From a virus (taxonomy: Duplodnaviria; Caudoviricetes): a stretch of DNA of 55,462 nt. The stretch spans positions 1-55,462 of the IMG/VR virus record IMGVR_UViG_3300028388_004387. One strand, written 5' to 3'. This document shows positions 13,599 through 39,228 of this stretch, one piece after another. The first letter of the stretch is position 1; each line of letters opens with the position of its first letter. The translations under genes and the position numbers were made by a program. The notes beneath the pieces were generated by a model that saw nothing but the letters and a program-made list of their open reading frames with translations, did no database searches and was not told the origin of the DNA.

Positions 13599-13605
13599 CG
13601 AAAAA

Positions 13606-14939: not shown

Positions 14940-14940
14940 T

Positions 14941-17900: not shown

Positions 17901-20900
17901 AGAATGGACTGAATGGGACGGCAGTAATGTGTGCGGGCACAGCAAGCTACAAGTAAAGCGCGTTATCACTTTTTGTGATGATTGCTGCCCAACGTATTGC
18001 AGCCCGATAAGCGAATGCCAGTGCTGCGATTTGACAGCAGACGCAGGCGCTGATGAAAGTATATGCCCAGGCACTATAACAACGCTCACAGCAACACCTA
18101 CAGGAGGCACAGCGCCCTACACATACGAATGGCAAGACAGTAGCGGTACAACAATAGGCACAACGCAGTCAGTCAACGTAATGCCTGCAAGCACAGAAAC
18201 ATACACGGTGATAATCACAGACGCGCTTGGATGTACTGCACAGGATAGCGTCACCATTACCGTGTACCCGGAGATGGCTTTGAGCGTAAGCGGAGACCCA
18301 GGCCTTGCAATCTGCAACGGCGGAAGCACTGATGTGGAGGTTACAGTTACGGGCGGCACAGCGCCTTTCACTTATGACTGGAGAGAGGTAGGCGGAGGTA
18401 GCTTAGGCACAACCAATCCAATCACCCTTTCCCCTGTTGTCACCACAGACTACGAGGTGGAGGTTACGGATGCAAATGGCTGCTCTAAAATCGAGCTTTT
18501 CACTATTACCGTGTACCCAGCGGTGACAGCAGACGCAGGGCCCGACGTTACAACGTGTCAGGGTACAGTTGTGCTTACGGGTACACCAGGAGGAGGCACA
18601 GCGCCTTACACAGAGGAGTGGGAAGACCCGAGCGGGATAATCACACCCGGCAACCCTTTAACCGTTTCGCCTCCTGTTACGGGCACCTACATTTATCGCG
18701 TAACCGACGCCAACGGATGCACAGCGGAAGATACTTTGCTGCTAACTGCAAGCGCAGGCCCCACTGCTGATGCTGGAGCTGACCAAACCATTTGCCCGGG
18801 CGATACTGCAACGCTATCAGGCAGCGCGACAGGCGGTACAGCACCCTACTCATACGAGTGGTTTGAAGGGGCTGTCAGCATAGGTACAACGCAAAACGTG
18901 AACGTAACGCCAGCAAGCACAACAACCTACACGCTTGAAGTAACAGACGCGAGCGGCTGCATAAGCACTGACACGGTAGAAATAATCGTAGATTCATGCG
19001 CTCCGGCGTGCGGGATTTCGTGCAGCATTGCAACCAACCCAAGCCCTGCGGAAATATGCGAAGGAGATAGTGTTGAGTTCACAGTAACTCCAGCAGGCAT
19101 GACAGGTCCTTACACTTACGAATGGGATGCGGATGGGGGCGGCTTCATGACTGGCTCCCAGACAATGGTGTTCACCTTCGTAAATGCAGGCACGTACACA
19201 GTACAGGCGCGCGTAACTGATGCAAACGGATGTATGACAACGTGCAGCGTAAGCGTTGACGTAGAGGAGCCATTATGCGACCCGGGCGCACAAGCTGCAA
19301 CCGTTTGCCAAGACTCGGGCACATATACGCTTTGGAGCTTGTTGACTTGGCCTTTTCCTTGCACGCCTCCGTCGCCTGCGACAGGGAATTGGTCGCTGGT
19401 AAGCGGAAACGCAAGTTGGTTCACACTTAGCGCCGACGGAGATCCGACTAACGACATTATAGATACCACAGGTATAGCGGGCGGAAGCACAGCAAGCTTA
19501 GACCTTACTCTAACCAATGGCGCATGCGCTGACCTGATTATACGATTAGACATAACCATTCGCTCACAATTCTTTTCCGGGCACCTTGCAGTTACTCCAG
19601 TCATCGATGTATGTGCACTTGGATTTGACGGCAAGGAATTTGACCTTAAAACGGTGTACGACACATGGCTTGCAACGCAAGGGCAGCCGCCAGCCGATGC
19701 GGGAGGAGAGTGGTGCGAGGTGAAATACGATTCTGGGTGCGTCGGTCCCTACACAACAAAGGAGGTAGATGCGGAAAGCACAGGCTGCACAACATACCCA
19801 ACAACCAGCGATATTCTTCCCGGCGGAGATAACCCGACAGTGAACTTCGAGTGTGGCGCACCTAACGACGGATGCTACCGCATAAGGTACAAAGCTCCAG
19901 CTGGAGAGTTGTGCCCAAACGACACAGTCGTAACCTTTAAGAGCGAAACCTGTACGCCAACATGTACAGCTTCCGTAACCATTACCGGAACCTGCTTGCT
20001 TACTGCAAACGTGACAGGCGGATGCCCAGGCGCTACATACCAGTGGCAGAGGTTTGTGGGAGGTAGCTGGTTCAACATTGCAGGGGCTACCAATAGCACT
20101 TACTTAAGCACCGCAAACGAAACGGTGAGAGTGCAAGTTTCATGCACGGATGGGTGTTCTTATACCAGCGCCCCCAGAACCGTTTCATGTGCGCCAGCAT
20201 GTACAGCGACAGCCACAGTCAATCAAAACTGCTGCCTGCTAACATTGATTACCACAAACTGCTCCTCTCAAACACAGCAGTGGCAGGAGTTTGTTGGAGG
20301 TAGCTGGGTGAATATTTCCGGAGCCACAGGAACCACTTTCAACGCCACAGGAAATGGCACCTATAGAGCTGCTGTAAATTGCTCGGGTTGCCCGACTATT
20401 TTTACTGCATCGCGGACGGTAAATATCAACGCTACAATCAGCGAATCAAGCTGCGTACTCACCGCAACCGTGACAGGGTGTACCAGCGTTTCAAACTACC
20501 AGTGGCAAGAGTTTACAGGAGGAACCTGGCAGAATAGAGGAAGCAACCAAAGCACGCACGACATAAGCGGTACCAATAGTACATGGCGGTGCGTTATAAC
20601 GATGGTAGGCGGATGCACATATACCTCCAACACCATATCAAAGAACTGCGTTGTAGCGTGCAGTATCTCCATATCGCTGGTTGAGCTGCCTAACGGAGAT
20701 TTGCGCGCCACTGCAAGCGGCTGCGGCACCTTAGATACTCCTCAATGGACGTATGCTACAAGCTACACTATTCCGGGCTCATGTTCGGGTGCAGGAGGCT
20801 GGTCTGCTGCGACAGGCACAACGGTAACGATAGGTAACGTATCAACGCACACACCTGCCAATGGCGCGCAGTGTTATAGAATTATTTGGAGGTGCTTAGA

Positions 20901-21924
20901 TGGAGCTACATGTATAGACGTTGAAACCATATATGCAGGCCCTTCATGCACCAACACAGTCAACGCAACACGCACAGCGCAGACATGCGATTACGAAATG
21001 TTCGACGAGCACCCGATAACAGGAGGCGCAAACTGGCGAGGGCGAGTGTTTGCAAACGTGTCGGACGCCACAGCTGAAAGGCGCTTTAGGGTTGAGAAAG
21101 ACTGCGGGGGAACGGTTACAACGGTGCTGGATACAACGCGCCTTGTCCCGCTTGCGCTTAGGCATACATATTTCAGCAATGCGTGGAACGAAGGGGACGT
21201 AATTGATTACGTTCGCCTTTACGAAAACGACGGAGCGGGAACAGTTACGGGCCCGATAGATGTGGTAGTGAATGTAAGCTTCACAGCAGGGCAGTCAAAT
21301 GCAACTATACGCACCAACCTTGAAAATGCAATAGAGGGTTGGCTGACGTCAAACTATTCAGCAAGCAACGGCTCAGACTATGAGCTTGAGATAGAGGTGC
21401 AAGGGAGCGGCACGCAGCGCAATGTGTGGATTCATTTCACATGCAGGCACGTGGGGGCGCAAAACTGGTTCGGGATAAACAAGACAGACAGCAACATGCA
21501 AATCACGCAGGTAGGCGGAGCGCTGTTCAATATCCCAGCTACACAACAGGAATGGGAGCGCAGCCCTTTCAATATCCCAGACGTGCAGTACACGCTGCCC
21601 TGCGGTACCGTGCTGCGAGTGCGTGTGCTATTCACAAATCCTCCGGGTATTATTGTAGATAGCAGCAGTAATTTCGATACACTCGTCCCGCTGGACCCTG
21701 CACCTTTCTACTACATACAGGACAGGCTTGGAAGCTGCACAGAACACACGCTGACAGCAAACACCTCCGGCTGCACAGGAACGGAAACCTTCGAGTGGAG
21801 GAATCCAGCCGGCACCGTTATAGGCACAACGCGCAGCATAGTCGTAACAGCAAGCGGCACATATGAGGTGACAGTAAAGTGCCCTGGCTGCCCAGATATA
21901 ACAGACACAGTAACCGTACCATAA
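14941..21924 (+). CDS. Giant Cys-rich tail tip/adhesin protein (2327 aa): N-terminal tail hub-like region plus SprB/PKD-like Ig repeats
   Basis: N-terminal LDL...L.L.K....L.DI...F.VP....N and PLVNYG hub-type motifs; repeats ADAG.D..IC.G...GGTAPYTYEW...TY.V.VTDA.GC. Confidence 0.8.
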   Translation: MSECCLVIEIIEALEHVPSRFYESDGRLILDLDSGSSLSLDKKAEELNDINQISIDVAAPFTVPASDKNFAILREYLNANIWNQNFKPWVVRVTQGGEPLRMRYLYPRAFNEGADSFELILSTDEHWVQKASELRLCDLNLPAIPVSCATWLDKMQNNAQYVDGDDGYWIPLVNYGGQNVLNYVPIEFLRPWYSLLYLLQVGFCQIGFKLSAPALETAFGRRILSYVWSEDYGKDRYVLDKRRASARMTLTDIPPYGQVPFTMVVTEEVGISSQNEIPLNDVLQDESQLLQPKPSGQFGTFTAYTGTGIVEVAIKGYLDNVDYLPASIITNLVLHIRLVKRDQDGNDIPLENHVIPWDPVVAPRLQFNHTFEPAEVLPGEYLFIDVVCDPVGQAFGEGQAFGINMSADFETQRVFFSEGEEIDPSSNISCKDSFLDLVKAAAHLLNAKFDTNLARQEVGMYCPYDVEWYGESVEGYYIEDGEVDDWSDKVQCKSERTTTPENNRERYLNIGFKRSQDKYIDDTLNEDEIDEEFNHIQDLGEQYRDATKSIRNPLFEPTLNGDVLIANQEVQEVLNIPVCWDNEDGEEISYKLGYRLLYAHGWDMQYFEEVAREWFFCLDGASYTSLPLAYQIPNRPTAITGTATTPDIPMWRLTYGASVNSLFNMFYRRIIAETLENYGIEFLIYIDVNMWGFIDFRKRYAINYKDTVLVAWIKEIRDWLPCSDVSTPVAFRGVRESTDCLPDPILALPPGAGFCSGNNPAIVAVRNGSCVDFSIGGVSVSPIVFQEWEYKKASETVFTSFGTNPTANLCTGERTTIKLTVAYDIGPDGSTCEPKTVITVINPCADNRPVGLCESYQNEDGDWCLKAEVGGVIFDPYVEQNFEYSVNGGTTWSSYTSGSELCGLAGTVNFRVTLNWSNDCADTLLEWSCNVEPAILDCDVTDADVTCAEVGGEVCCFEITPSATQFACQVATDVVYWRGTNDGSTWTEWTEWDGSNVCGHSKLQVKRVITFCDDCCPTYCSPISECQCCDLTADAGADESICPGTITTLTATPTGGTAPYTYEWQDSSGTTIGTTQSVNVMPASTETYTVIITDALGCTAQDSVTITVYPEMALSVSGDPGLAICNGGSTDVEVTVTGGTAPFTYDWREVGGGSLGTTNPITLSPVVTTDYEVEVTDANGCSKIELFTITVYPAVTADAGPDVTTCQGTVVLTGTPGGGTAPYTEEWEDPSGIITPGNPLTVSPPVTGTYIYRVTDANGCTAEDTLLLTASAGPTADAGADQTICPGDTATLSGSATGGTAPYSYEWFEGAVSIGTTQNVNVTPASTTTYTLEVTDASGCISTDTVEIIVDSCAPACGISCSIATNPSPAEICEGDSVEFTVTPAGMTGPYTYEWDADGGGFMTGSQTMVFTFVNAGTYTVQARVTDANGCMTTCSVSVDVEEPLCDPGAQAATVCQDSGTYTLWSLLTWPFPCTPPSPATGNWSLVSGNASWFTLSADGDPTNDIIDTTGIAGGSTASLDLTLTNGACADLIIRLDITIRSQFFSGHLAVTPVIDVCALGFDGKEFDLKTVYDTWLATQGQPPADAGGEWCEVKYDSGCVGPYTTKEVDAESTGCTTYPTTSDILPGGDNPTVNFECGAPNDGCYRIRYKAPAGELCPNDTVVTFKSETCTPTCTASVTITGTCLLTANVTGGCPGATYQWQRFVGGSWFNIAGATNSTYLSTANETVRVQVSCTDGCSYTSAPRTVSCAPACTATATVNQNCCLLTLITTNCSSQTQQWQEFVGGSWVNISGATGTTFNATGNGTYRAAVNCSGCPTIFTASRTVNINATISESSCVLTATVTGCTSVSNYQWQEFTGGTWQNRGSNQSTHDISGTNSTWRCVITMVGGCTYTSNTISKNCVVACSISISLVELPNGDLRATASGCGTLDTPQWTYATSYTIPGSCSGAGGWSAATGTTVTIGNVSTHTPANGAQCYRIIWRCLDGATCIDVETIYAGPSCTNTVNATRTAQTCDYEMFDEHPITGGANWRGRVFANVSDATAERRFRVEKDCGGTVTTVLDTTRLVPLALRHTYFSNAWNEGDVIDYVRLYENDGAGTVTGPIDVVVNVSFTAGQSNATIRTNLENAIEGWLTSNYSASNGSDYELEIEVQGSGTQRNVWIHFTCRHVGAQNWFGINKTDSNMQITQVGGALFNIPATQQEWERSPFNIPDVQYTLPCGTVLRVRVLFTNPPGIIVDSSSNFDTLVPLDPAPFYYIQDRLGSCTEHTLTANTSGCTGTETFEWRNPAGTVIGTTRSIVVTASGTYEVTVKCPGCPDITDTVTVP
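18028..19270 (+). repeat. Five tandem SprB/PKD-like Ig repeats (about 80 aa each) inside the giant tail protein
   Basis: Recurring GGTAP(Y/F)(T/S)(Y/E)(E/D)W (GMTGPYTYEW in the fifth) and (V/I)TDA(N/L/S)GC motifs. Confidence 0.8.
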
Positions 21925-21934
21925 AACGATTGAA

Positions 21935-22441
21935 ATGGCATACTACAATTTGATTGAAATTAAGGATGACAGGATGGTAATTGTGAAGCAAGCGCTAAGC
22001 CGGGAGGAGTACGAAGCAAACCCTCATGTCAGCTCTGGCGTGCAAACCTTCTGGAGCGTAACGCAAAACGATACAGAGCAAGCAAGCTTAGAGGACCAGG
22101 TTAACAGCTTCACAACCGCGTTGCAGAACAGCGCAGTAATGGAAGCCAAGAAAAAAGACCCAGCCAACGGAGCAGGCGGCGGCATTATACCTCCCTCAGA
22201 GGTAGTGATAGGGCAAGCAACGCCACAGCCTTCTGCACAAACAGTAGACATTGAACTTGACTTATCCAAGCTAAGCAAACAGCAAAAAGCAGAGGCGGAG
22301 AGGATAGCAAATGAGGGCACAGATAACGAAGCGTTCTTCTTTGCTAAGCAACATAAAATCGCCAACATTGATTTGTGCTGCTCGGGCTTTGCAAAAAGCG
22401 TAATGGCTGCGCTTAAAAGTTCACTTAAAAGCGAGGAGTAA
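21935..22441 (+). CDS. Hypothetical protein
   Basis: 168-aa ORF; C-terminal LCCSG. Confidence 0.7.
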   Translation: MAYYNLIEIKDDRMVIVKQALSREEYEANPHVSSGVQTFWSVTQNDTEQASLEDQVNSFTTALQNSAVMEAKKKDPANGAGGGIIPPSEVVIGQATPQPSAQTVDIELDLSKLSKQQKAEAERIANEGTDNEAFFFAKQHKIANIDLCCSGFAKSVMAALKSSLKSEE

Positions 22442-22647
22442 TGTGGGACTGGAGCAAGCTACCAAAGGAGGAACACGAAGCAGCGATTGAAGCGTACAGC
22501 TATGGGCGCTGGAGCGTGCTGCGGCAACTGCATGACAAGTATAGCTTGAGCCCCTACTCTTATTGCTGCGACACCAAAGGAATAATCAATCACTTCAAAC
22601 ACGCAATCGAAAATGGAATACTCCAAGGAAGAGCTGTCGAAGCGTAA
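22441..22647 (+). CDS. Small hypothetical protein
   Basis: 68-aa ORF with a TAATG-coupled start; SYCCD motif. Confidence 0.65.
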   Translation: MWDWSKLPKEEHEAAIEAYSYGRWSVLRQLHDKYSLSPYSYCCDTKGIINHFKHAIENGILQGRAVEA

Positions 22648-22882
22648 AAAAGCAATCGCTAAGTTTCTAAGCGCAGTAACACCCGAGAGATATATGCCAG
22701 AGGACGTGACAGAAGCGCATCTCGCGTTTTTTAGCGCATATCGCCTAAAAGAGCTGGTGAAGCCTCTTGTCGTGCGAGACAAGCGAAAAAAACCAACTGC
22801 CACTGAAGGGCAGCTTGCAAACAAGTACGGCATAAAGCCAACACAGGTCCAGTACATGTTCCGTCAGTGTAAGCGCAGCTAA
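22613..22882 (+). CDS. Small HTH protein (Mor-like late regulator candidate)
   Basis: TEGQLANKYGIKPTQVQYMF helix-turn-helix directly upstream of the head operon. Confidence 0.55.
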   Translation: MEYSKEELSKRKKAIAKFLSAVTPERYMPEDVTEAHLAFFSAYRLKELVKPLVVRDKRKKPTATEGQLANKYGIKPTQVQYMFRQCKRS

Positions 22883-22988
22883 AGAAGTTCCGTAATTTTT
22901 ATTCGCTACTAAGGAAATCGCTTGCCTGTATAAATTCCTTTCCTTTACTTCGTTGAGACGGATTTAGTTACCCGAAACAAAAAGCAGT

Positions 22989-24065
22989 ATGAGTCAAACC
23001 TTAGAGATACAAATTTTTGAAGAGATAGGTGGCTGGGGCTTCGGCATGCGCGACTTAGTTGAGCAGCTAAGAGGCTTCACCGGAACCAACATCCGCGTCC
23101 CTATTAACTCCTATGGAGGAGTTGTTACAGAGGGCATTTCAATTTACAACGTACTGAAAGGGAGGAAGGAGCATGTAGAGGCTCATATTGTAGGCTATGC
23201 AATGAGCATGGGTACAGTAATTGCCATGGCAGCGGATACTGTAACGATGCCCGAAAACGGCTACTTTATGATACATGAGCCGTGGGGCGTTGAAGTAGGC
23301 GACGCAGAGGAGATGGAAAAGATGAGCTCGCTGCTTGAGAAAATGGCGGAAATGCTTGCCAAAATATACAGCGAGAAGACAGGGCTCACTGTTAATCGCG
23401 TGAGGAAAATGATGAAAGAGGAGACGTGGCTTACTGCAAAAGAAGCGAAAGCGCTTGGCTTTGTAGACAAGCTCACTAAGGGTGCAGAAATTACTGCTGC
23501 ATACCATGTACAAAATCAGGAAATCCTGGCAGCTTGCAACAAGTTGCCTAAACCTATTTATAATTCACTTAAATCCACGGAAATGGAAAATACGTTTTTG
23601 AACAAAATCGGAAAGATTCTGGGTTTGGTAGGTGAAGGCACGGAGCCAATCACTGAGGACCAAGCAGAAGCAAAGCTCCAGGAGTTAGTTGAGCAAGCGC
23701 AAGCAAGCACGCAAAACACCGAGGAGCTGAGCAAGTTCCAGAACAATGTCAAAGACCTGTTCGGTAAAATGAACGAGGAGTTTGGCACCAAGCTCAAAGC
23801 TGTCCAAGACGAGTTAAGCGAAGTGAAAGCTGCCGCTGACAAATTCAAGGAAAGCAACGACGAGCTGACCACCAACTACAATGCGCTCCAGGAGGAGCTC
23901 AAGGAGTTGAAAGGCCAAGCCAGCGGAGGGCAAACCAAAGGCGACGGTGCTCCGCCGGCCCGGAAAACAGGTGCCGCTGCTGAAGGCGGTGCGACAGTCA
24001 TTGCTGCAAGCATGATTGACGAAATGCTCGGGAGCGATGTAAAAATCGTAAGGCCTGGAGCTTAA
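22989..24065 (+). CDS. ClpP-type prohead protease with C-terminal coiled-coil scaffold
   Basis: INSYGG.V.EG, G.AMSMGTVIAMA, FMIHEPW, ETWLTAKEAKALGFVD; coiled-coil C-terminal half. Confidence 0.92.
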   Translation: MSQTLEIQIFEEIGGWGFGMRDLVEQLRGFTGTNIRVPINSYGGVVTEGISIYNVLKGRKEHVEAHIVGYAMSMGTVIAMAADTVTMPENGYFMIHEPWGVEVGDAEEMEKMSSLLEKMAEMLAKIYSEKTGLTVNRVRKMMKEETWLTAKEAKALGFVDKLTKGAEITAAYHVQNQEILAACNKLPKPIYNSLKSTEMENTFLNKIGKILGLVGEGTEPITEDQAEAKLQELVEQAQASTQNTEELSKFQNNVKDLFGKMNEEFGTKLKAVQDELSEVKAAADKFKESNDELTTNYNALQEELKELKGQASGGQTKGDGAPPARKTGAAAEGGATVIAASMIDEMLGSDVKIVRPGA

Positions 24066-24105
24066 TTTGGAACCATAGTACATAACCTACTCAATCTAAA
24101 GAAAG

Positions 24106-25302
24106 ATGATTCAATTAACAGGAGACTTTGGTAGCATGGTTTACTCCGGCAACCAAAGCGGAAGATACCTGGATATTCCTACTGAAGTAGCAATGAAGCT
24201 ATTCTCAAAGTTGGCTATCCAGAAGCCCAATATTGTGCTGAATGCTTTAGGCATGTACACTCTCGCGCCAGTAGGCCGCGACGGTAAAGCACGTTTCGCG
24301 AACCTGAGTACGCCAAGGCACCTCTTGCAAAAGAGAAACAACGGCTGCGCATGGAATGCCAAAGGCCGCACTATTATGGAAACGGATTCCATTGATACGC
24401 ATGCGGTAGAGTACAACGGAGAGCAGTGCCCAGACCACTTGTGGGAGGGTTGCTTGGAGTTGCTCGCAGGAGCTGGCAATGACGTCAAAGACGTATTTGC
24501 TACGCCCGAAAGCGCTGCTATTATGCAGCAAGTAATTGAAAGGACCTACTTGGGTCTTGGAAATTCCTTCTACGACCTAATCAACTACGGGCAGCACCCG
24601 CTCATCACGCAATCCGACACCAACGGGTGGTACAATGAGCAGGAGGATGCTTGGGATGATTTTGTTGACCAGCAGTCTATCCTGGGAGGGCACATTACGC
24701 AAATTGATGCGCTGAAGTCCTCAGGCTACGACAATTTCCAGGTCGTAATCAACGAGGGTGACACGGACGGCAATAGCAAGTTCACGGCCAACGCCACAGA
24801 CTTGTTTGACGAGGTGATTGCTCGCGGAGGAACGAAGTTGAGGATTATGGTTAAGCAAATGCAAGCAACTGGAGGAAACGACAGACCGCTTCTGCTTGTT
24901 TCTCCAAGCATCTACAACAAGTACCGGGATGAGCTCATCAACGACTACAACACCCTGCCAGAAGCGTACACGTTGCAGCTTACAGCAAGCGACGGTCGTT
25001 TCACTGCGCCAGGCGTGCTGATGTACGACGGGTTTTGGGTCGTAAGGATGGATGAGTGGGACCTGTTCGACGAAATCACGGGAACCAAAACCTTCCGATG
25101 CTTGCTTACCGTCCCGGGCAACTTTGCAGTCGCCTACGACGTCCCAAGCTTGAATCAGTTCACCGGGATGAATATGCGCATTGTGCAGAAGCTTGACCCG
25201 CCTTACAACGGGAAGGTTTACATGCACACCAATTTCAAAGTTGGTGCGGGTATCATCGATACTGAACTGATGACAATGGCAGCCTTGACCCTTACTCCTT
25301 AA
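24106..25302 (+). CDS. Major capsid protein
   Basis: 398 aa immediately after the protease/scaffold and followed by a terminator-like hairpin; C-terminal LMYDGFWV and strand pattern consistent with the HK97 fold. Confidence 0.78.
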   Translation: MIQLTGDFGSMVYSGNQSGRYLDIPTEVAMKLFSKLAIQKPNIVLNALGMYTLAPVGRDGKARFANLSTPRHLLQKRNNGCAWNAKGRTIMETDSIDTHAVEYNGEQCPDHLWEGCLELLAGAGNDVKDVFATPESAAIMQQVIERTYLGLGNSFYDLINYGQHPLITQSDTNGWYNEQEDAWDDFVDQQSILGGHITQIDALKSSGYDNFQVVINEGDTDGNSKFTANATDLFDEVIARGGTKLRIMVKQMQATGGNDRPLLLVSPSIYNKYRDELINDYNTLPEAYTLQLTASDGRFTAPGVLMYDGFWVVRMDEWDLFDEITGTKTFRCLLTVPGNFAVAYDVPSLNQFTGMNMRIVQKLDPPYNGKVYMHTNFKVGAGIIDTELMTMAALTLTP

Positions 25303-28362: not shown

Positions 28363-28656
28363 ATGAGTTGGAGCATTGATAGGCTGCTAAAAGCAGCAGC
28401 TGAAAAAACACTTGCGGGAGAAAAAGTGCCGCCCGAGGTGAAGGAGTTTAGATTAGGCATTTGTGAAGCGAACGATTGCAATGGGTATGCAGTAGTAAGA
28501 GGAGAGAAGAGGTGCCTTTATTGTGGGTGCTACTTGGACGTGAAAGCGGGATGTGCTACAAATGTAAACCCAAAGACAATGAAGTGGGAGGTAACACATT
28601 GCCCAAAGGGGCTGTGGGACGACAAAGAGATTTTAGACTTTTATCAATCACCATAA
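28363..28656 (+). CDS. Small Cys-rich zinc-finger-like protein
   Basis: RLGICEANDC ... RCLYCGCYLDVK ... CPKGLW. Confidence 0.7.
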   Translation: MSWSIDRLLKAAAEKTLAGEKVPPEVKEFRLGICEANDCNGYAVVRGEKRCLYCGCYLDVKAGCATNVNPKTMKWEVTHCPKGLWDDKEILDFYQSP

Positions 28657-29422: not shown

Positions 29423-31567
29423 ATGCTCAATTATATCACTCCGGTTTTGATTGCGCTTGCACTGCACTTTAGCGCTGGGACGCCAACCGCGCCCGTCTTT
29501 GAAAGCGCTGACCCTCCAGTGCTTTTTTCCTGCTTAGATTGCGACAAAAGAATAGGACCAGATTGCGGTATTTGCGATAACCTAAACACCGCAATCGTTT
29601 TTAAAGGCATACGCTTCCAAGAGGTGTATGGTACAAGGAAAAAGGATGTCTTAATCAGGTATCCTTTTAGCATTTCATACAGCCTCACAAAGCTGACAGT
29701 CAAAAGCGCTTTTGGCGAGGAGTACAGTTTCAAAGTAACGCAAGCTTCTGGGTACAGCAACGTTCACGATATCATTGCTGCGATGTGTGCTTGTTTTGCT
29801 GTTGATGTGACACCAGGAGACTTTAGCTGCGAAGCTGCGCTGGGCTGTTCTTACATAGCTCCGCAGCGTGCAGGAGATACTTGGTATTGGATACAATATG
29901 ACACAACCAACACGCCTATAGACACAACTTCCGTCAACCCAATTCCGCACGTATTTGTCAGCCCAGAGCTGCACGCAGGAGTAGACACAACAGGGTATAG
30001 GCTTGATTGGATAGACGGTTACGACGGGGTTCAGACTTATTTGCTGCGTATCCCAGACCACGTATATGACGACAGAAGCGTATCGTGGAGCGAGACGGAC
30101 ACTTCTTTCACGATACTTACATGCACCACTCCAAGCCCAGAACGTACGAGAGAATGCGATACAATAACGATATCAAAGTATAGCATAAGCTGCACAGACA
30201 TTTGGGACCACATTACAATCATCCCCGAAGCAAACGGAGATTCAATTTATTACAAAGCATACTGCAACGGAGTCATCCAGGACACCACAGCCGTAGTACC
30301 CAGGAAGGCGCGCGAGTTGCCTAATCCCTGTGAAGCATTTTTGGAGTGCTTTAGCTTTGATACCATATGCGTAACCAACGAGCAAATCATCCTCGATACG
30401 ATGGTAAGCTGCACGCTTGAGGAGCGCTTTGATACAATCATTTCACCGCTCGACACAACCATAGTCTGCGATACCGTTTTAACGCTGTGCGACACCGTGC
30501 CATTTCCTATTGATACGATTATAAATTGCGATGATATAGCGGAGCCTGATAGTTGCGACTTTACAGCTTTTTGGTGCTGCAACACAATAAACCGCTTCCG
30601 CTTTTCAGACGACCAGGGAAGCACCTGGACAGAGCTGGCACCTCCCCTGGGGACAAACGGATGGGCAAACGCTTCGCAGCTTGGGGGCTTGCCGCCAGGT
30701 TACATTGCGTACAGAGACGCAACTCAAGGGCTATGCGAACAGATTGAGGTAATGGCTTTAGCGCTAAGCCCAATGAACAGAATTTACGAGTGCCTTGTTA
30801 CCGAGAACCCTTTTGGAGTAAGTGTAGCAGGCCGCATAAATTGCAATGCAGATTTATGGATTGACGCCCGATATGATGTTACTGCAAACTGCGATGACTG
30901 CTATGCACCCGGAGTGGGAGCTTGGTACGAGTTCATGCGCTTTGATAGCACGCGCCCGTTCTATCGCATAGAAACTATTTGTGACACCACAATCCTGTAC
31001 GATACGCTATTTGTAGGCTGCGACACCACCATTACCTGCGATACAACTATTTCGGGCGGAGACACCACGTTTGTGCCGCTGCCTGATACGCTTATCTGCG
31101 ACACCACAATAGTCAGCGACACGATTACCACTGGAGACGGGTGCTGGATAGTGCTTGTGGATAGCACAGGCATGCCTAAAGACACTATCGCTTGGCTTCC
31201 GAGCGGAGGAGGCGGAGGAGGCTTTACAACTTGTGAGCAAGTACGCGCATGCTTAAGCGTTGACACTGTTTGGCAAGACGGAGCGGAGCTGGTATTTGTA
31301 GAGGCCATACAGGGCGATACCATACGCCTAAACTTAAATACCATGCTTATTTCAGACGCTGCCTGGAGTACAGCCTGGGACGGGGATACAGCAGCAGCTA
31401 CAAAGAACGCAATTTATGACGGTGTGTGGCGCGACGTTTCTCATGGGATTTACAGCAATGACGCAGACGCGGCAGCAAACGGATGCCCTATAAATCAAAA
31501 CTATACTTTGAACAATGTAAATACCTACGGACTGCCTGCGGGTACTATTAAAAGACGAGTAAATTAA
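29423..31567 (+). CDS. Predicted secreted, Cys-rich fibre-like protein with 27 D(S/T)(A/I/L/V/M/T) sequons
   Basis: N-terminal hydrophobic stretch VLIALALHFSA; dense DT(T/I/V/L) motifs; fibre-type motifs WDGDTAAATKNAIYD and C-terminal YSNDADAAANG.P. Confidence 0.8.
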   Translation: MLNYITPVLIALALHFSAGTPTAPVFESADPPVLFSCLDCDKRIGPDCGICDNLNTAIVFKGIRFQEVYGTRKKDVLIRYPFSISYSLTKLTVKSAFGEEYSFKVTQASGYSNVHDIIAAMCACFAVDVTPGDFSCEAALGCSYIAPQRAGDTWYWIQYDTTNTPIDTTSVNPIPHVFVSPELHAGVDTTGYRLDWIDGYDGVQTYLLRIPDHVYDDRSVSWSETDTSFTILTCTTPSPERTRECDTITISKYSISCTDIWDHITIIPEANGDSIYYKAYCNGVIQDTTAVVPRKARELPNPCEAFLECFSFDTICVTNEQIILDTMVSCTLEERFDTIISPLDTTIVCDTVLTLCDTVPFPIDTIINCDDIAEPDSCDFTAFWCCNTINRFRFSDDQGSTWTELAPPLGTNGWANASQLGGLPPGYIAYRDATQGLCEQIEVMALALSPMNRIYECLVTENPFGVSVAGRINCNADLWIDARYDVTANCDDCYAPGVGAWYEFMRFDSTRPFYRIETICDTTILYDTLFVGCDTTITCDTTISGGDTTFVPLPDTLICDTTIVSDTITTGDGCWIVLVDSTGMPKDTIAWLPSGGGGGGFTTCEQVRACLSVDTVWQDGAELVFVEAIQGDTIRLNLNTMLISDAAWSTAWDGDTAAATKNAIYDGVWRDVSHGIYSNDADAAANGCPINQNYTLNNVNTYGLPAGTIKRRVN

Positions 31568-31572
31568 AGAGA

Positions 31573-34500
31573 ATGAAAAATGTAGTGTTTTCGGTTTTCT
31601 TAGCAGTTTTAAGCGCAGCGCTGTTCATCCCGGATAGTGCTGCGCAAACTGTTATTGAAGGAGGCGCTGGCGTTGTGCATGTCAGCAGCGACCCAGACTC
31701 AGATGCAGCTTTGCAAACACAAAGCCCAGACGAAGCTTTGTTGGCTATTGATAACAACGGCGGAAGCTTGTATGTTTATGACAGCTTGGCAGCTATTACG
31801 TTGCGCTGGCTTAAGCTTAACGAAGGAGTAGATTGGATAGGCACTTTCGACGGGCAAGAGGGAAGCTATTACCTTGACTATAACAACCTCACAAACCTCC
31901 CCAGCATTCCAACCGTAGACGGCACAGCCTTTGGCCCTTCATGGGATGCTAACGGCGACGCAGCGACAAAGGATGCTATCTACGATGAATTGAGCAATGT
32001 AGGCCTTGACAATTTTGACACTGATGTCGGCCAGCTGTTCGGAATTGTAAGAGGAATTTACCTTGACGACCCGGACGAATGGATTACTTCAGACGGGACT
32101 ACTGTTACGTTGAACATAGAAGCCACGGGAGGCGGCGACATAAGGATGCTATTTAGCGATGGCGTTTTCACATTAGATGCAACTCCAACAGCTACGATTG
32201 CTCTTACAGCAGGGAGCGATGTATCGCCTACTTTGAACTACATCTACATACCGCAATCCACAAAGGTTTTGACTGTTTCAACAACCGGGTGGCCTTCCAC
32301 TGAATATATCGCAGTTGGAACGGCTCTTGTACAAAGTGCTGCGTCGGTTCAAACGGATGGGGTTTACAAGTTTCATCAGTGGAGCGACCACGCTTATAAA
32401 GCCTCGAATAATACAGGCCATTTAGCTCACTTGAACTATTGGATAAGACAACAAGCGGCAACATGGACCAGCGGAGTTGCTTTGACTCCAACGGCTGGAG
32501 TTGGACAATTAGATATAACCACGACAAGCGGTAATATCTTGCAGCTTCATCCTCATGCCTTCCCTGCTTTCACGACAGTTGGAGCAACGGATGATATCTA
32601 CGTAATAAACGACCCTGATGCAGCCTATACAAAAGTAGGAGGATTAACCCAGGCAGAGGGAGTTGATAAAGACTTGAATGGAACCCTTCTTGGGGACCCC
32701 GCAACAGACTTTTATAACCTGGTATTATGGGGCGTTGTTTCGGAGGATTTGACTGACTGTAAATTGATGTTGAACTTGCCAGATGGAGCCTACGCAAATG
32801 ACAATGACCAACAGGCTACCCTTGACAGGGAAAACACAGCAGCCTACGACATCCCGATGGAATATGTAGGAACAGGGTTCCTTATTGCACGCTTAACCAT
32901 CCAGGAAAATGCTGGGACCTATACAGTTGTCAACAACGAAGATTTGAGAGGCTTATTTCCTTCAACTGCTGCTGGAGACGGTACAGGCTTAGGGCAAGGA
33001 AGTGAGTTCGCCGACAATGCGTTTAGGATACATGACGAGGCTGACATATCCAAGGAGGTAGAATTTCAACTTAACGGAGTGACTACATCCACGCTCAGAA
33101 CATTGACTGTTCCGGATGCAAGCGGTACTATCGCCCTAACGTCCGACGTATTTACTCCAAGCACATTGTTGGCTGACTACGGATTCACAGATAATTCCTC
33201 AAATTGGAATACAGCATTTGGGTGGGGCGACCATGCACTTGCAGGCTACCTGACGGATGCTCCAAGCGACGGTTCAGAGTATGTCAGGCTAAACGGAGCG
33301 TGGGCAGTAGCAAGTGGAGGCGGAGGAGGCGGTCCCACATTTGGAACAGACAACCAAATTCCGTACACCAATGCAGGTGGAACGGATTATGATTATTCAG
33401 CCAATTTCACATATGATGGAGCAGGATTATATGTGGGCGGAACAGATGTGGCACTTGATGCAACGGCCAATATAAAAAGCAGCGACGCCAAAAGCTTGAA
33501 AATAATGAACACGGCAACCTCAGGTTCGAGCGCCGGCGCCGGCATTGTCGCAATGTCAGATGATGGAAGCGCGAATGTTGCTGGTGACCGTCTTGGGTTC
33601 TTTTTGTTTGGGGGAAATAATGGGTTAGCAATAAGAAATGCAGCAGGTATTGTCGGATATTCTCAAAGCACATGGAACGGGAGCAATCAGGAAGCTAAAC
33701 TTGTAATTGAAACAAGTCCACCAAATGTGGGCAATGTGCGCGAAGAAGTAGCGGAATTTGATTACACCGGGCTAACAATGGGAACAGGCAACAAGATTGT
33801 CATTGATGGATTGACATTGGAGGATGGGAGTATTTACACAACAGCCGGCGACCTGTTTATTCAAAGTGCAACGGGGAACATGGAGTTGGGCAATATTAGG
33901 TTTGATTCATATCAAACATTAGGAGCGGCACAGCAAGATTTTGTATTCGATTATGATAATGTCAGCGGCATAGCAGCATTTAGAGAATTTGATGGAGACC
34001 ATGCTGACATCGACTACACACCAACGTTTTATACACCCACAACAGCTCCAGCAGAAGCAGCAGACGCTGACGACCTTGCCGCGCACCTTGCGGGTGTTAA
34101 TGCAGCTATTGGAGGGCTGACACCCGAAAACGATGCTTTTGATGCAACATGGGACGGGGACCTTGATGCAGCAACGAAGAACGTGATTTACGACTATGTA
34201 AGCACGCTGATTGCGGAGCTGAAAGACGACCCAACACCCGAGCTGGCTGCTAATTTGATAATGAACGGAACGGCATTTGTTGACACTGTTACGCTCGGGG
34301 AAAATGCCTCCGCAAGAGACTTGCTTACGCTCGACACTGACCTTACTGATGGCAACTATTACCTAACGGACTGCGACGACGTTTCAAGGAGTACAGGGCA
34401 CCTGGTTTTAGCACTGGAAGCTGGGCTGGCAACGGAGCAAATTCAAGTGGCGATATTGGGTAAGGTTCCCGGTTTTACTGCGTTAAGCCAAAAGCCCTAC

Positions 34501-34647
34501 TATATCAGCGCAACTCCAGGCGCAATTACAGACACTGCACCCAGCACCGAAGGACAGGTTGCTCGCATAGTAGGGCAAGGGACAGACACAAATACAATTT
34601 TTAACTTTCAACCAGCAAGTTCATGGGCTATCGTTCAAACACCTTAG
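31573..34647 (+). CDS. Fibre-like protein (1024 aa) with Sec signal peptide
   Basis: MKNVVFSVFLAVLSAALFIPDSAA|Q; phage-fibre motifs RTLTVPDASGTIALTSD, WNTAFGWGDHA.AGYL, DAPSDG..YVR..GAW; C-terminal DUF2190-like cement domain (YYISATPGAIT.TAP). Confidence 0.85.
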   Translation: MKNVVFSVFLAVLSAALFIPDSAAQTVIEGGAGVVHVSSDPDSDAALQTQSPDEALLAIDNNGGSLYVYDSLAAITLRWLKLNEGVDWIGTFDGQEGSYYLDYNNLTNLPSIPTVDGTAFGPSWDANGDAATKDAIYDELSNVGLDNFDTDVGQLFGIVRGIYLDDPDEWITSDGTTVTLNIEATGGGDIRMLFSDGVFTLDATPTATIALTAGSDVSPTLNYIYIPQSTKVLTVSTTGWPSTEYIAVGTALVQSAASVQTDGVYKFHQWSDHAYKASNNTGHLAHLNYWIRQQAATWTSGVALTPTAGVGQLDITTTSGNILQLHPHAFPAFTTVGATDDIYVINDPDAAYTKVGGLTQAEGVDKDLNGTLLGDPATDFYNLVLWGVVSEDLTDCKLMLNLPDGAYANDNDQQATLDRENTAAYDIPMEYVGTGFLIARLTIQENAGTYTVVNNEDLRGLFPSTAAGDGTGLGQGSEFADNAFRIHDEADISKEVEFQLNGVTTSTLRTLTVPDASGTIALTSDVFTPSTLLADYGFTDNSSNWNTAFGWGDHALAGYLTDAPSDGSEYVRLNGAWAVASGGGGGGPTFGTDNQIPYTNAGGTDYDYSANFTYDGAGLYVGGTDVALDATANIKSSDAKSLKIMNTATSGSSAGAGIVAMSDDGSANVAGDRLGFFLFGGNNGLAIRNAAGIVGYSQSTWNGSNQEAKLVIETSPPNVGNVREEVAEFDYTGLTMGTGNKIVIDGLTLEDGSIYTTAGDLFIQSATGNMELGNIRFDSYQTLGAAQQDFVFDYDNVSGIAAFREFDGDHADIDYTPTFYTPTTAPAEAADADDLAAHLAGVNAAIGGLTPENDAFDATWDGDLDAATKNVIYDYVSTLIAELKDDPTPELAANLIMNGTAFVDTVTLGENASARDLLTLDTDLTDGNYYLTDCDDVSRSTGHLVLALEAGLATEQIQVAILGKVPGFTALSQKPYYISATPGAITDTAPSTEGQVARIVGQGTDTNTIFNFQPASSWAIVQTP

Positions 34648-36125
34648 CGTTACTTTTTGCGCTGTGCTTAGTCGCACTGCAAGGAGCAAGCCAGGCGCAT
34701 ATGATAATCAGAGGTAACAGCACCTTGACGGATTCAATACCGGATAGCGGCGACACGCTCAACCTTAAATGGCCGGATGCTGACACTTTGGTTGGTACTG
34801 CTATTCGTTACATAGCAGCAGATGGCTCGTTTGTTTTTGATAGCGCAGGGCGATACCATGTGCAGTACACTGAAAAGCTAACAACATCCTCTACAAATAC
34901 CGCCTACCCTGTTGAACCTAAAATTGGAATTTGGCATTCAGGCCACCAATATTTTTATGGCAGAAAAACACATTGGATAAGCAAGCAGACAAGCAGCAAT
35001 TCAGCTCAAATAACCAACGCAGCGTTGATTGATGCAGCAATAGGCGATACGGTTAGGATTATAGTCGAACGAGTAGATGCAGTTGTTCAGAACGGGGAAA
35101 AGCCTGTGCGCGCAGCAGAAGAAAGCAGCGTTGTCATTTTCAAATTTCCTAACCATTGGGAATGGGCAAGCTATTTCAAAACATCAGCCCAAGCAATAGG
35201 CACCGGAATCAATGCAATCAACTACATAACCCTTGATTCAACCGCACAGGAAGGTACGCCATTCACTTTAGAGGCAAACGGATATGATGTGACAAGCGGA
35301 ACAGCTAATCATATTCTTGCTTACTTTAGTATGAGCGCAAACGGAACCGGAGCAACTGCGGACTATAACATTCAAACCCGGAACAGATTCGCAGGTAACA
35401 CCAATACATACAGGCCGTGGCTGGACAACAAATATTCAAGTTCGTCAGTGCAAAAATTATCCTTTGGGGCGTCGGGTATTTGGCCGGCATCAGTTAGTGA
35501 AACATTTGCAATGCAAACGGTAAACAGGAATGCGACGTATGGCTCAACAAATATCAATACATACGAACTACAAATGATTGAATTACCGTCTACTTCAGAA
35601 GTATTTCATGTGCGTGGCGGTAGCAACCCACAAAACGGATTGGACCAAGACTTCCTTTGGACACAAGTTTTTGAAATAGATGCGCTAACATACGACCAAC
35701 CAAACGACACATTGATAACCATTGAAAAGGCGGGGACCTATTTGTTTTTTGGTGGTTCACAGATTGGCGGAAGCGGAGGTGCTGCATATACTATACCGCG
35801 ACACCAAATAACTATTGACAATACAGTAGATACACGCTTTGGCAGCTCGGACTTCATTAGGGGTGGCTCAACGCTTGACCACATGACGACACAGTTCTCG
35901 GCGATTGTGCCGGGCATAACAGTAGGCACGGAATTAAGGTACCAAGCCAACCGGCTGGGTGCGTCGGGCGGCGGCAATTCAAACGGTGATGTTTTTCAAG
36001 GTATCAACCTAACCACCATACTTGGCAGCCCAGCAGCGCCTTCAAGCGCCTTAGGTATAAACGGAGTAGACGCTTCCACAGTAAACGGCGTCAATTATAG
36101 TTCATTTATAGGTATATCAAAGTAA
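34623..36125 (+). CDS. Predicted secreted beta-sandwich (C1q/TNF-like repeat) protein, receptor-binding candidate
   Basis: Signal-like LALLFALCLVALQGA|SQ; repeated F.F..AG.Y.V / I.I.KAGTYLF strands; C-terminal INGV....VNGV motif. Confidence 0.7.
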   Translation: MGYRSNTLALLFALCLVALQGASQAHMIIRGNSTLTDSIPDSGDTLNLKWPDADTLVGTAIRYIAADGSFVFDSAGRYHVQYTEKLTTSSTNTAYPVEPKIGIWHSGHQYFYGRKTHWISKQTSSNSAQITNAALIDAAIGDTVRIIVERVDAVVQNGEKPVRAAEESSVVIFKFPNHWEWASYFKTSAQAIGTGINAINYITLDSTAQEGTPFTLEANGYDVTSGTANHILAYFSMSANGTGATADYNIQTRNRFAGNTNTYRPWLDNKYSSSSVQKLSFGASGIWPASVSETFAMQTVNRNATYGSTNINTYELQMIELPSTSEVFHVRGGSNPQNGLDQDFLWTQVFEIDALTYDQPNDTLITIEKAGTYLFFGGSQIGGSGGAAYTIPRHQITIDNTVDTRFGSSDFIRGGSTLDHMTTQFSAIVPGITVGTELRYQANRLGASGGGNSNGDVFQGINLTTILGSPAAPSSALGINGVDASTVNGVNYSSFIGISK

Positions 36126-36130
36126 AAGAT

Positions 36131-36505
36131 ATGAAACACTTGTTGCTCTTTTTTATGCTTGCTTGTGCAGTAGCTTGCAAGCCAGCAAGCGAATCGCTCC
36201 AGCTCGATACAGTGCAGCCAGCCTTGCAAAGCGCACCTGCTTACAGTATTGGGCAGCTTGTAGAGATGAGGACGTACAGCGAGGCAAGAGGGCAAAAGGT
36301 TGCAGACGCAGACGGTAATGTAAGCTTTGGCGGGCTGGTTTTCAACATAGATATGATTCAGTATGCAGGCGATACAATGCGCGTGTCAAACGTCATTACA
36401 GAAATGCCGGGCCTAGACCCTTTGCTTTTGCCTTTGTACGAAATGGAAACGGATAACCAGGAGTGGCTTTGGCCTGAGGTTTTTATCAAAAAGAAAGCCA
36501 GGTAA
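36131..36505 (+). CDS. Predicted lipoprotein
   Basis: MKHLLLFFMLACAVA|C lipobox-type signal peptide. Confidence 0.7.
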   Translation: MKHLLLFFMLACAVACKPASESLQLDTVQPALQSAPAYSIGQLVEMRTYSEARGQKVADADGNVSFGGLVFNIDMIQYAGDTMRVSNVITEMPGLDPLLLPLYEMETDNQEWLWPEVFIKKKAR

Positions 36506-38262: not shown

Positions 38263-39228
38263 ATGGCACAAGAAAAACAGCCGAAAAAAAGTTTTGTGGA
38301 GCGCATGCGCGACAACGTATTAAAGCCCCTGCAAGAGCTCGGGATGGAAAAGGCGCAAGCGGAGGCAGAAATACAATGGGCAGCAGAGCAGATTCTTAGC
38401 TCGGAGCAGCTTTTAAAGTGTTCAGCAAATAGCCTTTTCAATGCTGTGCTGGATACTGCACGAATGGGACTATCTCTTAACCCTTCTCGCGCTGAAGCTT
38501 ACTTAACCACAAAGTGGGATAAGGTGTCTAAATCGGCTAAGGCATATTTAGAGCCAAGCTACCGAGGCTTGACTTTGTTAGCTGCGCAATCTTGCGGAGC
38601 CAAGTACAGCATTGCTCATGTAGTGTACAGCGACGACGATTTTGTTATGCCCAATCTGCTTGACCCAAAAAGCGTTGCGGTTCATAAGCCAAGCTTAAAA
38701 AAGAGCGGAGAGCCTATAGGCGCTTATTCGCAGTTCGTTCTACCTGACGGTACTGCGCTGTTTGAGTACATGACGATTGACGAGATTAAGGAGGTGCGTA
38801 GTGCAAGCCAAGGGTGGCAGGCATTTGAGAAAAAGAAAATACAAGCAACGCCCTGGCACAATTGGTTTGGAGAAATGGCGCGCAAGACAGTAGTAAGGAG
38901 GCATATCAAATACCTACCTAAGTACGAGAACACGAAGTACGAAAAGCTGATGGCTGCTGCAAGCGCGATAGATAGCCAATACGAGTTTGAAAACACTCCG
39001 GTGGTAGTAGCAGCGGATGAGCAGGAGAACGTGCGAGAGAACGCGCGAGAAACGCTTGTGAAGCAAATTACCGAGGGCTTAAGCAAGTGCAGCAAAGAAA
39101 CACAGCAAGAGCTGAAGGAGCTGCTAAGAGAGAAAAAGGCAGCAGGAGAAATCACCTTGCAGCTACTTGAGGCAGTGGCGAAGCAAATAGAGGAAGAAAT
39201 TGCAGAATCAACAAGCACGGAGCAGTGA
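38263..39228 (+). CDS. recT: RecT-family single-strand annealing protein
   Basis: LLKCSANSL.NA....A..GLSLNP...EAYL, SYRGL, VVY..DDF, PW..WF.EMARKTVVRR..KYLP. Confidence 0.92.
   Translation: MAQEKQPKKSFVERMRDNVLKPLQELGMEKAQAEAEIQWAAEQILSSEQLLKCSANSLFNAVLDTARMGLSLNPSRAEAYLTTKWDKVSKSAKAYLEPSYRGLTLLAAQSCGAKYSIAHVVYSDDDFVMPNLLDPKSVAVHKPSLKKSGEPIGAYSQFVLPDGTALFEYMTIDEIKEVRSASQGWQAFEKKKIQATPWHNWFGEMARKTVVRRHIKYLPKYENTKYEKLMAAASAIDSQYEFENTPVVVAADEQENVRENARETLVKQITEGLSKCSKETQQELKELLREKKAAGEITLQLLEAVAKQIEEEIAESTSTEQ

Follow-up and report, generated by a model that had tools for sequence, protein, structure and literature searches.

A mirrored cysteine pattern in a phage fibre-like protein suggests two antiparallel, cross-linked tracts around an inserted domain

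What structure would a phage protein adopt when its cysteines are spaced in near mirror image on the two sides of an inserted domain? This question is raised by a 714-aa open reading frame (ORF) in a stretch of viral DNA of 55,462 nucleotides (hereafter the window), taken from IMG/VR record IMGVR_UViG_3300028388_004387 (Duplodnaviria; Caudoviricetes). An earlier inspection of the letters (the sequence-only reading) had listed outgoing Cys at residues 316, 330, 349, 356 and 369 (spacings 14, 19, 7 and 13) and returning Cys at 520, 533, 539, 559 and 574 (spacings 13, 6, 20 and 15). Translation of ORF 29423..31567 reproduces both series exactly, with residue 316 starting at base 30368 and residue 574 ending at base 31144. 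The ORF is intact, both of its ends are conserved, and 4.9% of its residues are Cys, compared with 1.9% on average in the proteome. The features of the ends of the protein are as follows.

29423..31567, plus strand: fibre-like ORF of 714 aa with 35 Cys (4.9%); its N-terminal domain and C-terminal motifs are shared, with a unique middle between them
29423..29494, plus strand: signal-peptide-like hydrophobic N-terminus, residues 1-24 (maximum Kyte-Doolittle 12-mer 2.13)
29519..29797, plus strand: conserved N-terminal domain, approximately residues 33-125, with Cys 37, 40, 48, 51, 122 and 124; the hallmark of the family
31295..31435, plus strand: one copy of the fibre repeat ...W(D/N)G....(P)TKNAIYD.., approximately residues 625-671
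31436..31564, plus strand: C-terminal motif ND..A...G......Y.L...N.YG.P.G..K, residues 672-714

The N-terminal domain carries the family pattern FxFxC..C(D/G)IC...CxC. In alignment A2, C37, C48, C51 and C122 are at least 90% conserved and D152 is invariant. A profile of this domain, built from 10 relatives with the 714-aa protein left out and searched with filters off, returned the 714-aa ORF as the sole significant match among the 339 ORFs of the window (E 9.2e-11, 36.1 bits). An AlphaFold2 model of the domain from 11 sequences reached a pLDDT of 57.7, with 68-78 for 10-residue blocks across residues 61-120, and in a Foldseek search this model had no row at E <= 0.001 in either PDB or BFVD. 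At the other end of the protein, the TKNAIYD-type repeat is common to multi-repeat fibre proteins and to the next ORF, and occurs twice in ORF 31573-34647; moreover, two C-terminal relatives (P0002 and P0008) carry Pfam BppL_N matches.

The family comprises at least 84 modular, fibre-like proteins with signal-peptide-like N-termini, including the 714-aa protein. Most members have ~374 aa and four C-terminal ND..A motifs, whereas the 714-aa protein has one copy together with a unique 300-aa module; long members carry typical fibre repeats. The gene order (capsid, then genes for 183, 90, 460, 225, 100 and 230 aa, then the 714-aa gene and the long fibre gene) is kept in 14 viral loci (L038-L051) and one MAG contig (L052), and the family occupies one conserved position directly upstream of the long fibre gene. 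We tentatively link this phage group to Saprospiraceae. A hydrophobic segment lies upstream of FxFxC in 65 of the 72 members that have this motif, and four consecutive ORFs in the window have hydrophobic N-termini; here, “signal-peptide-like” denotes a hydrophobicity measure (Kyte-Doolittle) only. The 714-aa protein thus has in common with the family the hydrophobic N-terminus, the Cys of the N-terminal domain, the gene position and the C-terminal ND..A motif, and as judged from its sequence it is a fibre-like protein of the adhesin or receptor-binding type. We also observed that about 7 kb of fibre-like genes in the window start with signal-peptide-like segments, as they do in related phages.

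The middle module with its two mirror-Cys tracts is unique to the 714-aa protein among the 84 family members. Its features are as follows.

30329..30349, plus strand: C-E-x4-C motif CEAFLEC, residues 303-309, directly ahead of tract A; the mirror of CEQVRAC
30359..30529, plus strand: tract A, residues 313-369, a DT-anchored unit array with Cys 316, 330, 349, 356 and 369
30530..30979, plus strand: inserted “knob” domain, residues 370-519, with 8 Cys
30605..30628, plus strand: Asp-box (BNR-type) motif SDDQGSTW, residues 395-402, within the knob (regular expression S.D.G.TW, for SxDxGxTW)
30980..31144, plus strand: tract B, residues 520-574, a DT-anchored unit array with Cys 520, 533, 539, 559 and 574
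31205..31222, plus strand: Gly6 linker at residues 595-600, with a 9-nt tandem repeat in the coding DNA
31232..31252, plus strand: C-E-x4-C motif CEQVRAC, residues 604-610

An exhaustive phmmer search gave 8 rows at E <= 0.001, one of them the protein itself, and the other 7 cover residues 614-714 only. For residues 296-616 there was no homologue among 1.84 billion representatives or in the 83 other family members, which leaves no sequences on which covariation or paired indels could be assessed. None of these 83 proteins has three DT spaced by 6-7 residues (0/83) or more than one CDT (0/83), compared with 7 CDT in the 714-aa protein. Pfam and PHROGs searches gave nothing above threshold (best Pfam row G7C_GBD, 14.4 bits; cut-off 27), and a PDB sequence search gave two rows only, both with E >= 1, and hence no chain match. 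The word-index homologue search recovered only the protein itself among 6922 candidates, and neither tblastn against 50,697 phage records nor single-protein scans of viral contigs matched the 714-aa protein or the capsid protein. At the DNA level, a degenerate pattern for C-D-T..C-D-T..D-T hit tracts A and B in the window, and its TGT-first version had no match there. The TGC-first version hit 36 stretches in viral contigs, which were all simple DNA tandem repeats or short frames, with no relatives among them. Structure prediction was of low confidence throughout: AlphaFold2, one of the checks that the sequence-only reading had proposed, gave a mean pLDDT of 32.3 for the full-length single sequence, and the ESM Atlas model had a pLDDT of 0.35, a best feature score of 0.76 (below the 0.9 level) and structure rows with TM <= 0.30 by query.

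Tracts A and B each consist of repeated 6-7-residue units of the form x-D-T-T/hydrophobic-hydrophobic-x-C/hydrophobic. The unit lengths are 12, 12, 7, 6, 7, 7 and 6+ residues in tract A, and 6, 7, 6, 7, 8, 5, 6 and 9 residues in tract B. The protein contains 26 DT (7.5 expected) and 7 CDT (0.37 expected), and D and T together account for 32% of the residues in tract A and for 45% in tract B, in line with their earlier description as DT-rich. When one array is read backwards, Cys occupies the identical 4 of 8 unit-end slots in A and B (from the knob outward, C,I,C,C,L,F,C,L and C,Y,C,C,G,P,C,S). All 8 slots fall in the register i+j = 889 +/- 1, and the five Cys pairs sum to 889, 889, 888, 889 and 890. 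Identical occupancy is expected by chance in 1/70 of cases, or in 1/35 with the first slot fixed.

The near-mirror relation of the Cys spacings held up. The best mirrored pair of five-Cys runs has a score of 3 (the sum of spacing differences), and the best direct, non-mirrored match has a score of 18. Of 5000 random Cys placements, 1.2% reached a mirror score of <=3, as did 1.4% of 5000 shuffles of the spacings (P about 0.013). The mirror extends outward to 303/309 and 604/610, with 5 of 6 spacings within 1 over seven consecutive Cys per side (P = 0.002-0.0035, the test being chosen post hoc). All these P values are post hoc and uncorrected for the fact that the pattern came from a reader's scan of the whole 55-kb window. 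Moreover, the order of the module is mirrored rather than duplicated: CExxxxC, array, insert, array, CExxxxC. The mirror of Cys spacings is thus unlikely to have arisen by chance. DNA repeats are weak (61-77% over 31-32 nt), with a ~13-residue double unit visible at the DNA level, and we take the repeats of tract B to be old because their DNA copies are only 61-77% alike. No inverted DNA repeat was found between tracts A and B.

The domain enclosed by the tracts holds eight further Cys in residues 370-519, the number that the sequence-only reading had counted. Its Asp-box pattern was matched in 0.095% of 20000 shuffles; the motif occurs in a single copy and therefore carries no information on a propeller, and Pfam BNR gave no report at E <= 0.1 for the 714-aa protein. 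A search of the 151 genomes of the family to which the L052 MAG belongs gave weak rows only, 7 in number and spread over 6 genomes, with per-genome E of 0.015-0.096, a yield close to chance expectation. By eye, 4 of the 6 translated weak rows sit on Asp-box-like stretches of large ORFs in these Saprospiraceae-family genomes, and tract-like stretches were found in none of the weak rows.

Our leading reading, to which we assign a probability of about 0.4, is that tracts A and B pair in antiparallel orientation and are cross-linked by disulfides. The sequence pattern on which this structural claim rests, with a post hoc P of about 0.002-0.014, suggests such an arrangement. Pairing is favoured by the mirror statistics, by the match of 8 of 8 slots in one register and by the mirrored, not duplicated, order, and also by Cys parity, as cross-tract bonds would resolve the odd numbers (5 + 5 in the tracts, 8 in the insert). 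The fibre context (N-domain homology, gene order, fibre repeats and BppL_N), the signal-peptide-like N-termini and the Cys content speak for it as well. The two arrays would lie side by side, running out and back, with disulfides at matching heights: one where the insert begins and ends (369-520) and, probably, four more (356-533, 349-539, 330-559 and 316-574). The Asp-box domain would sit at the distal end, as a head that would bind glycans or a receptor, and the signal peptide would send the protein to the oxidising periplasm, where disulfides can form. We would expect a compact multi-stranded beta structure in which each unit is a short strand plus a turn, possibly within a trimer, and not a free two-stranded ribbon of 180 Angstrom. 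Pairing is weakened by the low-confidence models, by the lack of homologues and by the hydrophobic cross-pairs, which number 6 in register 889 versus 4-11 in other registers and thus show no excess. It also counts against this reading that an exported protein would have to be added to a virion whose assembly takes place in the cytoplasm.

The same idea in its literal form, as the sequence-only reading had drawn it, is a monomeric two-stranded ribbon of ~54 residues per strand with five nested disulfides and a globular knob. The mirror statistics, the constant i+j and the parity of the Cys count fit this model too, but we consider it very unlikely. Beta-sheet geometry does not allow odd Cys separations (here 13, 7, 19 and 13) all to occupy non-hydrogen-bonded pair sites, prolines stand in the proposed strands (342, 360, 362, 552 and 554), the 29-39% of hydrophobic residues would be exposed on a lone ribbon, and the hydrophobic register signal is absent. 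Furthermore, the family consists of fibres, which are usually trimers. Known cystine ladders are also far smaller: in theta-defensins and the cystine-ladder-like loop of Chlamydomonas HAP2, antiparallel strands are joined by parallel nested disulfides, and three rungs fit into an 18-residue cyclic peptide or a 37-residue loop (PMC6327110). The proposed nested topology would resemble these ladders, with Cys mirror-symmetric about the turn (i+j 888-890); however, instead of rungs at every second residue of a short hairpin, the 714-aa protein would have 5-7 rungs distributed over 55-67 residues per side, separated by 6-20 residues (in several cases an odd number), and its turn would be occupied by a 150-aa domain. 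The bovine ultralong CDR H3, to which the module had been likened, agrees in topology, in that one strand leads up to a disulfide-rich tip domain and another leads down from it, but not in the placement of the bonds or in size. In cattle, the disulfides lie in the knob and not in the stalk, and the loop has 40-70 aa within an immunoglobulin (PMC5994613), whereas the phage module has ~260-310 aa and 10 Cys in its “stalk”, and no sequence relation exists between the two.

Local Cx5-6C loops are a serious rival to tract pairing. In this case, the tracts would be independent, each folding on its own, for instance into C-x5/6-C loops or into a narrow beta-roll or beta-solenoid with ~13 residues in each coil, and the mirror would be a coincidence of equal periods, which we regard as somewhat unlikely. 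C-x5-C and C-x6-C spacings are enriched across the whole protein (7 observed versus 2.55 expected, P = 0.010), and 4 of the 7 lie outside the tracts (CEAALGC, CEAFLEC, CDFTAFWC and CEQVRAC); the seven include 349-356 and 533-539, which could be local loops instead of rungs, and this weakens the case for pairing. The ~13-residue double unit in the DNA would fit such coils, equal 6-7-residue periods yield a constant i+j automatically, so that only slot occupancy (1/70 to 1/35) is informative, and DT-hydrophobic strand starters also follow the N-domain in relatives (D152 invariant; DT motifs in loci L040 and L042). However, with five Cys, an odd number, at least one Cys per tract would have to pair elsewhere or stay free, and the mirror reaches the flanking CExxxxC motifs. 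A parallel is the Tenebrio antifreeze protein, a disulfide-braced beta-solenoid that has a TCT face and 12-residue coils, each with two Cys. It is likewise built of very short repeats rich in Thr and Cys, with a Cys spacing of 6 residues, but here only 349/356 and 533/539 fit, one Cx5-6C pair per tract, the motif is (C)DT, and no sequence or fold match was obtained.

A trimeric shaft, either a triple beta-helix or a six-stranded needle like that of T4 gp37, would use the Cys for inter-chain bonds or for axial metal and not for intra-chain rungs. Its appeal lies in the relatives, which are modular fibre proteins and include C-terminal relatives with BppL_N, and in the 6-8-residue period that is typical of triple beta-helices; in T4 gp37, moreover, the chain runs out to the tip and returns. 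That phage receptor-binding fibre likewise has regularly spaced axial ligands, namely histidines that hold seven axial iron ions in a trimer (PMC6957217). In contrast, HxH is absent anywhere in the 714-aa protein, whose His residues (15, 115, 176, 184, 213, 263 and 674) leave none between 264 and 673, and a signal peptide would point to disulfides over metal sites. Such a shaft is decidedly unlikely in our estimate. Finally, the tracts might have no defined pairing and form a fast-evolving, repeat-rich spacer whose Cys pattern is structurally meaningless. That the region is an ORFan without relatives and that predictor confidence is low would be compatible with this, but every null tried gave significance for both the Cys density and the mirror, and the ORF is intact with conserved ends, which makes a meaningless pattern hardly probable.

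Signal-peptide-like segments on fibre genes pose a question about the site of fibre folding and the route to the virion; in the literature on signal-peptide-bearing phage fibres and Saprospiraceae phages, we found no title or abstract that addresses it. In its most far-reaching form, which we hold to be distinctly unlikely, tract pairing would amount to a cystine ladder of 5-7 rungs, several times the longest described, in a rigid stapled stalk with an Asp-box head, on Sec-exported, periplasm-oxidised fibres whose addition to the virion would have to take place at lysis or outside the cytoplasm. If tracts A and B do pair, they would form by far the longest natural cystine ladder and would represent a second way, beside the iron-histidine needle of T4 gp37, of stiffening an out-and-back receptor-binding stalk in phages, and a stalk of this kind could be used as a scaffold on which binding domains are displayed.

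The open reading frame with the mirrored cysteines lies in a virus genome record that is complete at 55,462 bp and carries direct terminal repeats; nearly all of its long ORFs are on the + strand. Together with this ORF, the recognisable phage genes are:

9814-13323, tape-measure protein
14941-21924, PKD/SprB-repeat protein, 2327 aa, 94 Cys (4.0%)
22989-24065, head maturation protease
29423-31567, + strand, ORF with mirrored cysteines, 714 aa, 35 Cys
38263-39228, RecT
50789-52258, large terminase

The structural gene order at 9814-25302 is unusual: the protease and capsid genes are preceded by those for the tape measure and the giant tail protein, and the fibre-like genes come after the capsid module. 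The 2327-aa protein adjoins the tape-measure region downstream, and its PKD and SprB-type repeats each carry paired Cys.

Cysteine makes up 4.9% of the 714-aa protein versus 1.9% of the whole predicted proteome. Translation of the ORF bore out the sequence-only reading, which had reported near mirror-image runs of five Cys at residues 316, 330, 349, 356 and 369 (tract A, 313-369; spacings 14, 19, 7, 13) and 520, 533, 539, 559 and 574 (tract B, 520-574; spacings 13, 6, 20, 15): all positions and spacings are correct, its coordinates (30368-31144) correspond to residues 316-574, and the enclosed domain (370-519) contains eight Cys. The symmetry also exceeds chance. When every pair of five-Cys runs in the protein was scanned, the best mirror score was 3, versus 18 for the best direct (non-mirrored) match; random placements reached so low a value in 1.2% of cases and spacing shuffles in 1.4%. 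Like all mirror P values here, these are per protein, for a pattern itself picked from the whole window. Moreover, the mirror extends outward to CEAFLEC (303-309) before tract A and CEQVRAC (604-610) after tract B; for runs of seven Cys on each side, 5 of 6 spacings differ by at most one residue (P = 0.002-0.0035, in a test chosen post hoc).

Both tracts are repeat arrays anchored on DT, which occurs 26 times in the protein versus 7.5 expected (CDT, 7 versus 0.37). Tract A consists of the units DTICVTNEQIIL, DTMVSCTLEERF, DTIISPL, DTTIVC, DTVLTLC, DTVPFPI and DTIINC, and tract B of (C) DTTILY, DTLFVGC, DTTITC, DTTISGG, DTTFVPLP, DTLIC, DTTIVS and DTITTGDGC, with Cys as the last residue of a unit in both. 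Read from the insert outward, the unit-end slots hold C, I, C, C, L, F, C, L in tract A and C, Y, C, C, G, P, C, S in tract B; Cys occupancy is the same in 8/8 slots, and the paired positions sum to 889 ± 1 in each. Because arrays of equal period yield a constant sum automatically, slot occupancy is the informative part, and its chance of agreement is 1/70, or 1/35 with the first slot fixed. The array copies are 61-77% alike in DNA and the ORF contains no tandem DNA repeat other than that of its Gly6 linker; the repeats are therefore old, and it is their protein sequence that has been maintained. This linker (residues 595-600, window 31203-31222), which separates tract B from CEQVRAC, is encoded by 2.2 perfect copies of a 9-nt tandem unit, possibly a slippage site varying linker length. 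The insert contains a strict Asp-box, SDDQGSTW, which arises in 0.095% of shuffles. An Asp-box-like SVNGGTTW is present at residue 885 of the 2327-aa protein.

Taken alone, the 714-aa protein is an orphan: it matched no Pfam or PHROG family, and neither a word-index search nor the phage records returned a homologue. Exhaustive phmmer against 1.84 billion representatives gave matches solely to its last 100 residues, either in fibre proteins built of '...WNG....PTKNAIYDKIE' repeats, with Pfam BppL_N matches, or in proteins terminating in 'ND..A...G....Y.L...N.YG.P.G..K'. The next ORF (31573-34647, 1024 aa) carries the WNG....PTKNAIYD-type motif twice. Through capsid-protein relatives, the same gene order was found at 14 viral loci as well as on one MAG contig: capsid, then proteins of ~183, 90, 460, 225 (DUF6712), 100 (6-7 Cys) and 230 aa, a variable protein and a long fibre-like protein, the last two each with a hydrophobic N-terminus. 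The Cys of the ~100-aa ORFs are kept across these related phages. In the window, a 97-aa protein with 7 Cys (7.2%), encoded two genes upstream of the 714-aa ORF (28363-28656), resembles a mini-protein of the zinc-ribbon or disulfide type.

The variable proteins share with the 714-aa protein an N-terminal domain (F-x-F-x-C-x-C ... C-D-I-C ... S-R-x-F-x-G-L-L-I ... W-I-D-x-P-Y ... C-x-C), whose cysteines correspond to Cys 37, 40, 48, 51, 122 and 124. A profile of ten relatives alone, run with filters off on 339 six-frame window ORFs, identified the 714-aa ORF as its only significant match (E 9.2e-11, 36.1 bits). Searching with the N-domain profile yielded 84 proteins of 320-1702 aa, the 714-aa protein included; a typical member has ~374 aa and four C-terminal motif copies, and long members bear typical fibre repeats. 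Three DT at 6-7-residue spacing were found in 0/83 other members, as was more than one CDT. By sequence, therefore, the protein belongs to a modular fibre-like family, and among the 84 it alone has the mirrored-Cys module. The commonest architecture (P0103-P0185, ~374 aa), for which Pfam records no family, comprises a signal-like segment, the N-domain, a 'VDTPIIGNG..TIGQFGADTT.FLNWNG..WYP' segment and four copies of ND..A..G..Y.L..N.YG.P.G.K with conserved CGYDC and CC.

Signal-peptide-like starts, called by hydrophobicity and judgement of the n-h-c pattern, are present on four consecutive ORFs at 29423, 31573, 34623 and 36131 (714, 1024, 500 and 124 aa; window 29423-36505), and the ORF at 36131 also has a lipobox-like LACAVAC. 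Such segments are absent from the capsid, protease and tape-measure proteins. A hydrophobic 12-mer precedes FxFxC in 65 of the 72 family members bearing that motif, and the syntenic genes of the 14 viral loci have such starts as well. If the predicted export is true, disulfide formation in the 714-aa protein is plausible, an argument that would extend to the paired Cys of the PKD/SprB repeats in the 2327-aa protein.

Of the readings weighed, we favour, with a probability of roughly 0.4, a fibre or adhesin that would be exported and folded under oxidising conditions. Its two DT arrays would lie next to each other, one leading out and the other back, cross-linked at matching heights, to display the Asp-box domain as a putative binding head on a compact multi-stranded beta stalk, possibly trimeric. 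Antiparallel pairing of the tracts is favoured by the mirror statistics, by elements that are mirrored rather than duplicated (CExxxxC - array - insert - array - CExxxxC) and by Cys parity (five per tract, eight in the insert). Independent, local folding of each tract is a less probable alternative, and a doubtful one, to which C-x5-C and C-x6-C spacings point: they are enriched protein-wide (7 versus 2.55 expected, P = 0.010) and include 349-356 and 533-539.

The sequence-only reading had gone further, to a two-stranded ribbon of ~54 residues per strand with five nested disulfides and a knob at its tip. Such a literal ribbon matches the mirrored spacing but is improbable: with odd Cys separations (13, 7 and 19), successive rungs would fall by turns on non-hydrogen-bonded and hydrogen-bonded sites, the second of which are unfavourable for disulfides in beta-sheet pairs. 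The tracts contain five prolines and 29-39% hydrophobic residues, and hydrophobic cross-pairs in the register summing to 889 are not in excess. Additionally, the family is one of fibres, and fibres usually form trimers. A trimeric shaft whose Cys are inter-chain or metal-bound is unlikely, and a region without defined structure just as improbable as the ribbon. The structure models were too low in confidence to be usable for judging these readings: AF2 without alignment gave pLDDT 32.3, and the ESM Atlas model had pLDDT 0.35 and uninformative neighbours.

Among published structures, authentic cystine ladders are the theta-defensins, with 18 residues and three parallel disulfides, and algal HAP2 has a ladder-like 37-residue loop, also with three (PMC6327110); the bovine ultralong CDR H3 is described as a beta-ribbon stalk without disulfides carrying a small disulfide-bonded knob (PMC5994613), and the T4 gp37 needle as a trimer stiffened by seven histidine-bound iron ions (PMC6957217). 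Unlike gp37, the 714-aa protein has no HxH. From these comparisons, the feature is best filed with phage fibre and receptor-binding proteins, and the module may use the cystine-ladder principle on a previously undescribed scale.

Two capsid relatives occur in Saprospiraceae-named records (P0060 and the MAG contig L052, which has the same gene order and a capsid protein 45% identical to the window's). A Saprospiraceae host is tentative, because further relatives lie in records named Acinetobacter johnsonii or Candidatus Peribacteria. Fibre-like proteins that are exported, if true, would be out of the ordinary in a tailed phage.
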